A DNA stretch of 29,042 nt, from the IMG/VR virus record IMGVR_UViG_3300010398_000030, positions 1-29,042 of that record; one strand, given 5' to 3'. The notes below the pieces were generated by a model. It was not told where the DNA came from and searched no databases. It was given only the letters and a program-made list of their open reading frames with translations. Both the position numbers and the translations under genes were made by a program. The stretch is from a virus. Lineage: Duplodnaviria > Caudoviricetes. Shown here one piece after another: positions 19,780-28,839 of the stretch. The stretch's first letter is position 1. Every line of letters starts with the position of its first letter.

Positions 19780-20655
19780 TTATTTCATCGTGTTCTTGTA
19801 ACCAGTGGTGCCACCCATCTGCTGGCCGTAGTTCGGTGGCGAAGCGAGCGGCGTGTAGCCCGCCGCTTGCGAACTCAACGCTGGGTTATTCGGAGTAACT
19901 CCACTCTGCGTGGACGGCTGGATCGGATTGTTCACCTGTTGCGTGGTCGTGGTCGGCGCACCGTATCCTTGCTGTGGCGGCAGGAACCCAGCGGGACTTG
20001 AGAACGACGGGTAAGAGGGACCGGCGACCGATGCGTACTGCGGCCCCATCGAGAGGTACTGCGGACCCATCGTGCTGAACGGCGTGAACCCTCCTGGTCC
20101 TCCCCAACTGCCGCCGCCTCCCCAACTGCCGCCTCCCGGCGTGCCGTTGCCCCACGGCCCTGCCTGCTGCGTGACGGTCGGCGCCTGTCCAGGTCCTTGC
20201 GTCGAGGTCGAGGTCACACCTCCGCTCGCCGTACCGAACGGCATCGATGCGCGATCGAACGCAGTCGGCAAACTTACGTTCGGAGGCGGTGCGCTGATGG
20301 TCGGCGGAGGCGGTGGTGGAGGTGGCGGGGGCGCGGGAGGAGGAGGCGGTGGGGGTGGAGGTGTTGGAGGTGGAGGAGGAGGTGGTGGTGGTGCAGGGGG
20401 TGGTGGCGGCGGCGCGGCCGCAGGCGGTGGTGCTGAGACTGTCGGCGCGGGACCGGCATAGAATGGTGCCACGCCGGGATTCATCGGGTTCATCGACTGC
20501 GCGATTTTCTGCTGAATCGTGCCCGAGTTGAGTTGGTTGGTAAGATTGTTGAGGTACTTCTGGATGCCGGGATCGAGTCCTACATTCGACCCGAGGTTGA
20601 TGTACGGACTATCCAGTGCCGACAGAACCGGCGCGGTGGTTTTGGCTTTCGCCAT
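19780..20655 (-). CDS. Polyproline-containing low-complexity protein, 291 aa
   Basis: Start lies 1 nt after the upstream stop. Long Pro tract, with short repeats MGPQY x2 and GGGSWG x2. Confidence 0.65.
   Translation of the reverse strand: MAKAKTTAPVLSALDSPYINLGSNVGLDPGIQKYLNNLTNQLNSGTIQQKIAQSMNPMNPGVAPFYAGPAPTVSAPPPAAAPPPPPPAPPPPPPPPPTPPPPPPPPPAPPPPPPPPPPTISAPPPNVSLPTAFDRASMPFGTASGGVTSTSTQGPGQAPTVTQQAGPWGNGTPGGGSWGGGGSWGGPGGFTPFSTMGPQYLSMGPQYASVAGPSYPSFSSPAGFLPPQQGYGAPTTTTQQVNNPIQPSTQSGVTPNNPALSSQAAGYTPLASPPNYGQQMGGTTGYKNTMK
20282..20430. repeat. Imperfect (GGN)n trinucleotide tract encoding polyproline on the minus strand
   Basis: Runs of ggt/gga/ggc/ggg are directly visible. Confidence 0.85.
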
Positions 20656-26687: not shown

Positions 26688-26783
26688 TTACCGGAGATGC
26701 GGTGTGTGCTGCTCATGCCGTTCCCCGAAATCAGCCGTGGGAACGTGCAATAGCCCTGCTTTCAGTCCAGTCTTTACCTTCAT
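26688..26783 (-). CDS. 31-aa peptide MKVKTGLKAGLLHVPTADFGERHEQHTPHLR
   Basis: Hand-translated. Strong AAGGAG RBS, promoter-like sequence upstream and a hairpin downstream. Confidence 0.6.
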   Translation of the reverse strand: MKVKTGLKAGLLHVPTADFGERHEQHTPHLR

Positions 26784-26815
26784 GCTCTTTCTCCTTTGGC
26801 GAACACCGGCCCGGG

Positions 26816-26844
26816 ATAATAGCGTGATTTTGGCGCTTTGACAC
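26816..26844 (-). promoter_or_regulatory. Sigma70-like promoter candidate
   Basis: Minus strand GTGTCA-N17-TATTAT in an AT-richer patch between the array and the peptide ORF. Confidence 0.5.
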
Positions 26845-26886
26845 GTTAACAGCGCATTTCAGCTTATATCGTTGTTTTACGCGCAC

Positions 26887-27668
26887 CCTCTTCACTCCAT
26901 TTCAAGTCACGTCATTTCTGTTCGCTTCTCGCCGTCAGCACACGGCAGCACCCAGCACGCCAGAGCACGGCACTCCGTTTCTCGTCGGCACCACACCACA
27001 GTTCATCGCAGACCGCTTCTCGTCGGCACCACACATCATCAGCACGCCATGGCAATTCGGTACTCGACGCCAGACCACCACGCAGCAATTCAGTTCTCAT
27101 CGGCCACTTCACGCCTAGGCAACACGGCACAGTCCTCGTCGGCAAGCCATCGCACACCAGATCACTGCGCCACTCGACTCCATCGCAAATCATTCCACGC
27201 CATCTCCAAGCCATAACAATACTCGCCGCCACGACAATCCAGACCCGGTCACTTCGTTCCTCGACTCCAGTTCAAACCACCAGATCAAGGCAGTCCGACT
27301 CACACCTCGACTCCACATCAATTCAGATCACCGCCATACACCACGCATCTAGACGACAGACCACTGCGTTGCACAACAATCCACTTCTCGCCGCCAGAGC
27401 AGACCACCGCACGGCAGAGCGCCTCTCGCCGCCATAACAAACCACTCCCTTCCAGGCCATGCCGACTCTCGCCTGCATTTCACGTCAAGCCATTGCGCTC
27501 CAATACTCGTCACCAAGCCAGAGCAAATCGGCCCAAATCATTGCGCTTCACGCCTCGCCTCCACTGCACGTCAGATCGAACCGGCACACGTCTCGCCGCC
27601 ACTTCAGACCGATGCATGGCAATTCTCGCTCCAGACCAGACCGCCACACAGCTATTCAGTTCTCATCG
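26887..27668 (-). repeat. Non-CRISPR array of ~19 units with 5-nt internal periodicity; putative guide-RNA array for the adjacent RAMP protein
   Basis: Plus-strand unit = NCTC-GNCNNCA-(NNNC[A/G])4-8-NN, e.g. tctc gccgcca gagca gacca ccgca cggca gagcg cc. Units are mostly 33-53 nt (13+5n), with about 100 pentamers by hand count. No credible ORF. Confidence 0.9.
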
Positions 27669-28333
27669 ACCTTCTTGAGCGTGTAGTCGTACCGCCCCTC
27701 CCCGTCACTCCTTTCGCCCCCGTACCCGTGCGTCCCGCCATAATCCATGATGGTCCGCAAATCATCTTCACTGATGACCATGCGCCCGCTGGGCTGGGTG
27801 AGAATGTCCAGCGTAAACCTCATCATCGCCCCCTCCACGTACTGGTAGGTCTTGATCGCGCTCTGCACCCCCAGCCGCCCGGTCGGATGAATCGGCTTGT
27901 CTACCTGCCCGGTCGGTGCCTTCACCCGCTCCCCATCCGCCTGGTTCAGCACCGGCACCCAGTACACCTCCTTCGGGTAATACACCGAGTTGAGCACCTT
28001 CACCGCAAAGCTCCGCTCCTTCTCGATCTTCCCCACGTACAAAGACGACAGCACCCGCCCGCAGTCCTTGATGTGCGCCCGCACCGTCGCCATCCGCATC
28101 ACCAGCCCACCCTCCATCTTCTGGAACACGTACAGCCCGCCCTTCTCCTCCTCGCTCGCCTCCACCGTGCTCGCCGCTACTTCCGCCGCAATCTCGTCAA
28201 TTGAACGAGAGTCCGGCGGCCGCACCTTCGGCTTCCGGCTGTCCAGCCACTTGCGCTGGAGCTCCGGGTCCGCCGGCAAGCTCCCGCACAGCTTGGTCAC
28301 AAACTTCCACTCGACGTCATATTTGGTCCACAT
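27656..28333 (-). CDS. Stand-alone RAMP-superfamily (Cas7/Csm3/Csf2-like) RNA-binding protein, 225 aa
   Basis: RAMP-like N-terminal strand (YDVEWKFVTKLCGSLP), strand-helix motif (LVMRMATVRAHIKD) and the C-terminal glycine-rich loop GGTHGYGGERSDGEGRY. GAGGGGG RBS. Confidence 0.75.
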   Translation of the reverse strand: MWTKYDVEWKFVTKLCGSLPADPELQRKWLDSRKPKVRPPDSRSIDEIAAEVAASTVEASEEEKGGLYVFQKMEGGLVMRMATVRAHIKDCGRVLSSLYVGKIEKERSFAVKVLNSVYYPKEVYWVPVLNQADGERVKAPTGQVDKPIHPTGRLGVQSAIKTYQYVEGAMMRFTLDILTQPSGRMVISEDDLRTIMDYGGTHGYGGERSDGEGRYDYTLKKVDEN

Positions 28334-28342
28334 GATTCCCCC

Positions 28343-28699
28343 TCATTGCGGTGTCTCTGTTGGCACCGCTGGCTTGAGCCGCAATCCGCACTGCGGGCAA
28401 TGATCGTGCAGCAGGTAGTATTCCGCCTGCATACTCTTGGCGAGTTCCAACATCGACTCGTTCTGGCTCTTGAACAGCCGCCAGTAGAAGCGGTTGACGA
28501 ACGCGTAGCTGATGTTCCACGTCCACATCGCCGTCGCCGGAATCCACAGCCAGAACTGCCACTGCCACCCCGAGTTCCAGATGCTTAATGCCATGAACGG
28601 CGCGAACGCGATGAGCCAGTTGATGCTGGTGCGCGGGGAATCCTCTGGACTCGAGGGTATGTACGCCCGCTTGAACCAGCCAATTATTTTCTTCGCCAT
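28343..28699 (-). CDS. Trp-rich two-TM membrane protein with C-terminal CPQCG, 118 aa
   Basis: Start re-called to the ATG at 28697-28699 (GAGGA RBS) within track ORF 28343-28801. Confidence 0.6.
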   Translation of the reverse strand: MAKKIIGWFKRAYIPSSPEDSPRTSINWLIAFAPFMALSIWNSGWQWQFWLWIPATAMWTWNISYAFVNRFYWRLFKSQNESMLELAKSMQAEYYLLHDHCPQCGLRLKPAVPTETPQ

Positions 28700-28839
28700 T
28701 GGATGTCCTCTATATCTGCCTTGCGCTCCAGCTTCTTCACCCGCCTCCGCAACCCCGCGCAGTATCCGATCACTATCCCGATCAGGAGATACGGCCCGCA
28801 TATCAGCCCCAGCACCACCTCGTCACTCAGGTTAGTCAT
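28684..28839 (-). CDS. Small single-TM protein, 51 aa (MTNLSDEVVLGLICGPYLLIGIVIGYCAGLRRR...)
   Basis: Hand-translated. Overlaps both neighbours by a few bases. Hydrophobic helix followed by a basic stretch. Confidence 0.55.
   Translation of the reverse strand: MTNLSDEVVLGLICGPYLLIGIVIGYCAGLRRRVKKLERKADIEDIQWRRK

Follow-up and report, generated by a model that had tools for sequence, protein, structure and literature searches.

RESULTS

A solo Cas7-fold gene and an adjoining pentamer array

The window, a 29,042-nucleotide stretch of DNA from a virus of the Caudoviricetes, is a phage fragment carrying portal, capsid, terminase and SSB genes. Close to one end, a solo Cas7-fold gene is followed on the minus strand by an array of short units with 8-nucleotide boundaries between them. 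The features are listed below.

27656..28333, minus strand: vipr, encoding the solo RAMP (Cas7/Csm3-fold) protein P0001 of 225 aa with the G-loop GYGGERSDGEG (open reading frame, model and profile)
26893..27669, minus strand: predicted guide array of 19 units, each of about 5-9 NNN-YG pentamers plus an 8-nt boundary of consensus NMGNCGAG (parse)
27639..27668, minus strand: copy 1 of the matching pair, a boundary and the first unit, overlapping the vipr stop codon (open reading frame and array parse)
27632-27661, minus strand: body of the copy 1 unit, triplets AAC AAT CTG TGG GTC GTC
27514..27553, minus strand: unit of eight pentamers reading AKQIGILA, which resembles VKQIGILG in a PF19821 capsid gene (a lead at chance level only)
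27314..27348, minus strand: unit with seven triplets identical in the window, L048, L049 and L051; its boundary to the preceding unit is degenerate
27260..27305, minus strand: unit whose register is broken by a 3-base insertion; the intact form occurs in L051 and one run X1 contig
27073..27102, minus strand: copy 2 of the matching pair, a boundary and an internal unit, with orthologues in L047, L048/L049, L050/L052 and L051 (parse)
27071-27095, minus strand: body of the copy 2 unit, triplets AAC AAT CTG TGG GTC
26893..26927, minus strand: last unit, kept in L049, L051 and L052; N1N2 are the same throughout, whereas N3 varies

The predicted model of P0001 has a pLDDT of 93.6, and its best PDB folds in Foldseek were Csm3/Cas7 (E 1e-6). 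Pfam, PHROGs and PDB sequence searches returned nothing for this protein, and a profile search gathered 1186 protein clusters at E<=0.001. A broad profile built from 89 relatives matched the profile of the Vipr family of Escherichia phage SUSP1 (98 relatives) with a probability of 91.6% and an E value of 8e-7. Narrower profile comparisons were weak (only 1.9% for the narrow profile A1), and the two proteins are only remotely alike, with 16% identity over 128 columns. We identified the SUSP1 vipr gene itself by residue numbers, which agreed with the structure preprint at nine of the ten cited positions. The residues that fix GGY in SUSP1, whose roles come from the available part of that preprint (10.64898/2026.04.26.720927), are replaced in our alignments: D177 by G, W178 by E, and E71/M72 by A/T.

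No cas family match was found among the 28 (Pfam) and 24 (PHROGs; 22 of them from the window) proteins scanned. Within the window no accessory gene lies between vipr and the array, and the upstream open reading frame at 28343-28801 had no family match in Pfam or PHROGs. Between 26500 and 29042 no Rfam family reached its gathering score; there were no promoter or terminator signals worth citing, and no RNA holder is listed. In many relatives (L003-L013 and others) an open reading frame of about 90-105 codons separates vipr from the array and is a candidate accessory (vap) gene; its version in L002 had no Pfam match.

Array units and their composition

The minus-strand parse gave 18 segments and 19 units, in which runs of pentamers are closed by an 8-nt boundary ending in CGAG; the five-base periodicity spans about 26700 to 27750. 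Gene and array overlap. The vipr stop codon consists of the linker TG of the first pentamer plus the next base, and the array begins inside vipr (…DEK/N-stop) in the window (27654-27669) and in several close relatives, including L046, L050 and L051. Position 4 of the pentamer is T in 77 and C in 18 of the 100 pentamers of the window.

Of 124 fetched loci (duplicates counted), 111 gave a parse of this array type close to the gene. Family-wide, 466 of 591 units hold 5-8 pentamers, with one 8-nt boundary each. Position 3 is G in 48% of pentamers, position 4 is T in 82%, and position 5 is G in 98.5%. Entropies at positions 1 to 5 were 1.99, 2.0, 1.81, 0.88 and 0.14 bits (4021 pentamers), the last being partly fixed by the parser. 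An association between position 4 and the next pentamer was discarded as a probable parser artefact, and an apparent depletion of antisense stop codons (70 vs 105) disappeared under a better permutation (56 vs 57). In L002, L058, L024 and L027, units also lie upstream of vipr or in several blocks, besides those directly downstream.

VIPR is a CRISPR-related gene silencer described in 2026 (10.64898/2026.04.26.720920). As a solo Cas7-fold gene homologous to SUSP1 Vipr is followed here by an NNN-YG array, the locus reads as a VIPR variant, and we regard the feature in the window as very probably a VIPR-type guide array.

Two units of the array match except at one pentamer position

Positions 27073-27102 and 27639-27668 differ only at offsets 5, 10 and 15, so that 27 of 30 bases agree. 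The preliminary description, which had reported identical triplets with differences at a single pentamer position, was thus accurate on this point. In the orientation of the array, which is the minus strand and reads N1N2N3-Y-G, its position 5 corresponds to Y, its position 4 to the invariant G and its position 1 to N3. The final seven of the 30 matched bases (ctcatcg) form the constant unit boundary, so the informative part of the match comprises five triplets and four linkers. Thirteen bases of the copy at 27639-27668 (27656-27668) double as the end of the vipr reading frame (V-D-E-N-stop).

The longest shared run in 5000 shuffles of the window's 100 triplets was at most three, compared with the five observed. 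With changes assumed to spread evenly over non-G sites, the probability that all three fall on this position is 0.004-0.009. Both copies carry a TGAG boundary, which is rare (7 of 609 units); they therefore most likely arose by duplication, not by two independent acquisitions, and the three changes since then most likely all spared the triplets. Judged from these sequence features, a single predicted guide RNA of a phage VIPR-type system has likely been duplicated to give the two stretches. The guide is kept in five other loci (L047-L052) representing three or four lineages, and a contig joint with a loose end in run X2 implies a further orthologue. Because it is kept in several lineages, its target is probably long-lived. 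The idea that one important target had been specified twice gains a little from this retention, and the rare shared boundary speaks for duplication instead.

Changes in homologous units are unevenly distributed over the pentamer

We counted changes by pentamer position in 24 non-redundant pairs of homologous units (142 pentamers), drawn from the window and seven close loci by an automatic search that weighted N1 to N3 equally. This search gave 34 pairs, compared with 0-2 in five shuffles. Changes at positions 1 to 5 numbered 3, 3, 15, 32 and 0, and the distribution over positions 1-4 was uneven (chi-square P=3e-9), as the preliminary description had anticipated for orthologous units. N3 changed at about five times the rate of N1 or N2 (P=4e-4) and less often than position 4 (15 vs 32, P=0.009). 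The family of the duplicated guide required at least 1, 0, 3, 7 and 0 changes by position, and 15 hand-picked families gave 4, 2, 21, 31 and 1. In the set from all loci, which contains weaker pairs (24 observed vs 2 null), the profile was flatter: 14, 17, 22, 24 and 3.

The most changeable position is thus 4; N1 and N2 hardly change, and N3 is intermediate. The proposal that the fifth base of the preliminary register drifts while the triplet is constrained was correct in its first half, since that base is the most variable one; its second half needs amending, since the triplet is not uniform. The proposal that the drifting base resembles a synonymous code site did not hold: position 4 (Y) is a scaffold base preferring U, and it is N3 that faces the wobble position of the target codon.

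Guides of relatives match capsid and vipr genes in codon register

We searched the fetched loci, together with about 1.2 Mb of their contigs, for matches to the decoded units. One L002 unit matched, at 20 of 20 N1N2 bases, the codons of the HGYAGERSDG G-loop in 12 distinct vipr sequences; the vipr of L002 itself mismatches that guide, having AGA TCC codons where the guide reads CGN AGN. In the L002 contig, the PF19821 capsid gene was matched by two L058 units and vipr by a third (E<=2e-4 for each of the three), and PF05065 capsid genes were matched by two L006 units. A clade set of 20 loci and 230 kb, fetched after the first matches had been seen, gave 11 matches (8 foreign and 3 self) against 0-1 in six shuffles, and ten of the 11 fell on a capsid or vipr gene.

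We compared nine pairing rules on 23 guides. Pairing at N1N2 with one skipped base found five matches, contiguous pairing of N1N2N3 found three, and each of the other seven rules found 0-1. When all 311 long guides were taken, matches exceeded the null only modestly (17 vs 4-12). The validated guides number seven, from only three loci (L002, L058 and L006), two of which are close relatives; in all three relatives the one-base-skip rule of VIPR holds, wobble-aligned and on either strand. Among ten guide-target pairs, eight guides were antisense and two sense to the gene, and the skipped base lay at the wobble position in every case. Matching to either strand fits double-stranded DNA targets. 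Single matches of the guides at L006:4048, L004:3685 and L020:4272 were all antisense and wobble-aligned; judging by sequence motifs, we take the genes they hit to be methyltransferase-like (DPPY motif), prohead-protease-like and capsid-like.

The third base of the triplet follows the target

Next, we considered whether N3, which faces the skipped base, carries information on the target. When the triplets of relatives' guides are read contiguously, they spell the target peptide (RLEPIPFMD for RLEPITFMD; KAVHAMT for KAVHAMT). Of 25 constrained codons in seven guides from three loci, 23 had an N3 that fits the amino acid of the target (12.3 expected, P=3e-6); the count was 19 of 21 after one homologous guide had been dropped and 28 of 31 with the three single matches added. 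A target-independent test on 593 de-duplicated units gave the same indication. N3 and the N1 that follows the TG linker were not independent (z=9.7, 0 of 500 permutations); their pattern fits that of neighbouring bases in genomes (adjacent dinucleotides, r=0.73), and not that of xTGy (r=0.11). N2 showed no association with the next N1. A wobble-context model gave z=4.6 antisense and 1.4 sense. Compared with a close foreign homologue, N3 agreed at 22 of 37 positions; compared with the copy in the phage itself, at 9 of 38 (P=0.002, a post hoc comparison).

Other measures were less marked. Over all threshold matches of the 311 long guides, identity at non-G N3 was 32% vs 25%, not clearly above the null, and N3 is G in 48% of pentamers family-wide, a higher share than wobble positions would yield. 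A hand count ruled against G at N3 acting as a universal wildcard: none of 13 codons that require a pyrimidine had G there, but all 9 of those that require a purine did. Two related guides on the same capsid site, L002:2519 and L058:283, have different N3 bases at three matched codons; each of these changes is silent with respect to the target protein (E, P, I). Taken together, we are confident that N3 follows the third base of the target in this clade. As the skipped target base is retained in the guide, guides can be read as peptides and their targets found more precisely.

Pairing or copying at the third base

The reading that we consider probable, from comparison of sequences, is an NNN-YG variant of VIPR in which N1N2 likely pair strictly and N3 likely pairs weakly with the wobble base opposite it. 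Weak pairing is favoured because N3 changes less than position 4, which has only two states.

The main competitor is a strict two-base VIPR code in which N3 stays unpaired and is a record of how guides were made: the target would have been copied triplet-wise, TG inserted, and N3 left to drift. We give it a minor though real chance. Every signal of N3 following its target fits copying as well as pairing, and changes at N3 outnumber those at N1 or N2 fivefold. In the type II structure the protein holds the base that comes after NN, while the target base that is skipped flips out (10.64898/2026.04.26.720927, available part). In the register of that structure N3-Y-G equals G1-G2-Y3; the residues fixing those bases are the ones replaced here, a point in favour of the reading with weak pairing. 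What weighs against copying is that N3, despite four allowed states, changes less than position 4, that the C of GTC is kept at 15 of 15 aligned positions in the family of the duplicated guide (near-duplicate loci included), and that no enzyme for such copying appeared among the 28 and 24 open reading frames scanned.

A fully contiguous code, implied by the preliminary description, would have all three bases pairing equally and only YG flipped out. The spelling of target peptides and the 3 of 23 guides found by the contiguous rule agree with it; nevertheless we consider it improbable, since at the matches of this very rule identity by position was 25, 22 and 15 of 25, many N3 changes are tolerated in orthologous guides, and one guide has AGA facing a conserved Ser AGC.

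The guides might also serve mainly the phage's own genes, through vipr feedback or the timing of structural genes, and not those of rivals. Eleven of 560 units match their own genome, compared with 3-10 in shuffles, and one L058 guide agrees with the vipr of its own locus in all 14 N1N2 bases. Own copies mostly carry two or three N1N2 mismatches, however, the AGA TCC codons of the L002 vipr are an instance of such mismatch, and no window unit has a convincing self site; a mainly self-directed role is thus very improbable. That the array is a decayed microsatellite or non-coding repeat, the match being a recent duplication, has a negligible chance: the rare boundary common to both copies and the joints between units in contigs are in its favour, and duplication still accounts for the presence of two copies, but as a full explanation it is refuted by the clade-set matches to conserved genes in codon register and by the per-position counts, in which positions 1-2, for all their full entropy, hardly change between orthologues, so that the preliminary description was right to see a coded guide.

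Returning to an NNN-YG code with weak third-base pairing, a working scheme would run as follows: 1) the array adjoining the solo Cas7-fold gene would be co-transcribed with it and cut at the 8-nt boundaries into guides of about 35-50 nt; 2) by analogy with the SUSP1 structure, one Vipr subunit would sit on each pentamer and hold YG; 3) N1N2, which in relatives match target DNA every three bases on either strand in codon register, would pair with the target; 4) N3, which tracks the third base of the target statistically, may form an optional third base pair favouring the rival's allele over the phage's own copy; and 5) binding, by analogy, may repress transcription of capsid, vipr and other genes in competing phages.

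If N3 pairs, the variant would be a step from gapped towards contiguous pairing, and a DNA binder made of one protein and a short guide (about 40 nt) with discrimination at the wobble level. If it does not, N3 would be evidence for guides copied from targets. In either case the counterpart of the first fixed G is a free position here and carries the skipped base of the target. A more far-reaching proposal, which we rate as less likely than not, is a widespread phage VIPR clade of 1186 protein clusters (E<=0.001) with a three-base code, in which each subunit reads a whole codon of the rival and the third pair sets self against non-self. Were such a code true, it would stand between gapped recognition by VIPR and the contiguous pairing of CRISPR, and the wobble base kept in the guides would be a trace of their writing from target DNA.

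Search for targets of the window's own guides

The duplicated guide had no self site in the window, no match within one mismatch in about 1.7 Mb of related phage DNA and no exact three-base match in viral contigs. A looser pattern gave at least 120 matching loci, out of about 330 matches (24 of 64 parts scanned), mostly AT-rich chance matches. By the code seen in relatives, the target of this guide would be expected to read N/K-N/K-L-W-V-V-D/E (sense) or S-T-T-H-R/S/K-L/F (antisense). One match was in frame, in a nuclease-like open reading frame of L300 reading KKLWVVDYK, and is a lead only; we presume this frame to be DUF2800. Three other window guides gave 5, 5 and 0 matches, none convincing, and a peptide-level search with window guides stayed at shuffle level. 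Across these searches, no window unit had a target match beyond chance.

Relation to known VIPR and CRISPR systems

Type II VIPR is known from SUSP1 and a Pseudomonas fulva prophage (10.64898/2026.04.26.720920; structure 10.64898/2026.04.26.720927). As far as the available parts of these preprints describe it, the locus resembles this type in having a solo phage RAMP adjoining pentamer arrays, two bases per repeat matching the target every three bases with the skipped base at the wobble position, and both strands targeted, with rivals' genes and vipr genes among the targets (here in relatives). The RRM core and G-loop of a solo RAMP and a minimal phage locus with no other cas genes among the proteins scanned are further VIPR features found here. 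By contrast, the repeat is NNN-YG and not GGY/NN; units mostly have 5-9 pentamers and an 8-nt boundary in place of 9-16 repeats and a structured 3' tail; the window has no accessory gene between vipr and array; and the third base follows the target, whereas in the SUSP1 structure the position equivalent to N3 is flipped into the protein (10.64898/2026.04.26.720927).

Alternative vrRNAs with NNNGG, YNNNG and NNNNG repeats, and staggered arrays, are named in 10.64898/2026.04.26.720920 (supplement PMC13142463); according to the accessible text these repeats were named from language-model scores only, the code being left untested there. The NNN-YG repeat fits the NNNNG label and the head-to-tail units resemble staggered arrays, and this clade may already be one of the seven VIPR types, or be shown in figs S16-S18, of that preprint. 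Non-canonical VIPR-like clusters such as CAC/NN and TGH/NN have also been described (10.64898/2026.10.21.760802). The commonest pentamer class here, NN/GTG, is CAC/NN in reverse complement, so our clade may belong to those clusters; in the available part of that preprint every repeat is modelled as three fixed plus two free bases, under which a third informative base could not show. The accessible portions of 10.64898/2026.04.26.720920, 10.64898/2026.04.26.720927, 10.64898/2026.10.21.760802 and 10.64898/2026.10.15.759431 contain no report of a third informative base, code tests on GGY/NN guides only, and no account of the origin of new guides.

The backbones of class 1 CRISPR systems (Cas7/Csm3) share the fold and, as proposed here, form a RAMP filament along a guide released from an array. 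Here, unlike in class 1 CRISPR-Cas, there is no repeat-spacer array with contiguous spacers, the array being pentamer-coded, and no other cas gene was found among the open reading frames scanned.

Variation in the array and other observations

Contigs of runs X1 and X2 contain seven joints inside the array (window 26925-27656), several at or near unit boundaries, and have lost the 3-base insertion at 27276. These contigs suggest that within the population array units change order or are lost, misassembly being a possible source as well. In G037 and G038, the vipr match contains one in-frame TAG, possibly reflecting a broken gene or an alternative genetic code. Elsewhere in the window, positions 20303-20414 hold a low-complexity tandem repeat of the Gly/Pro type within a coding region.
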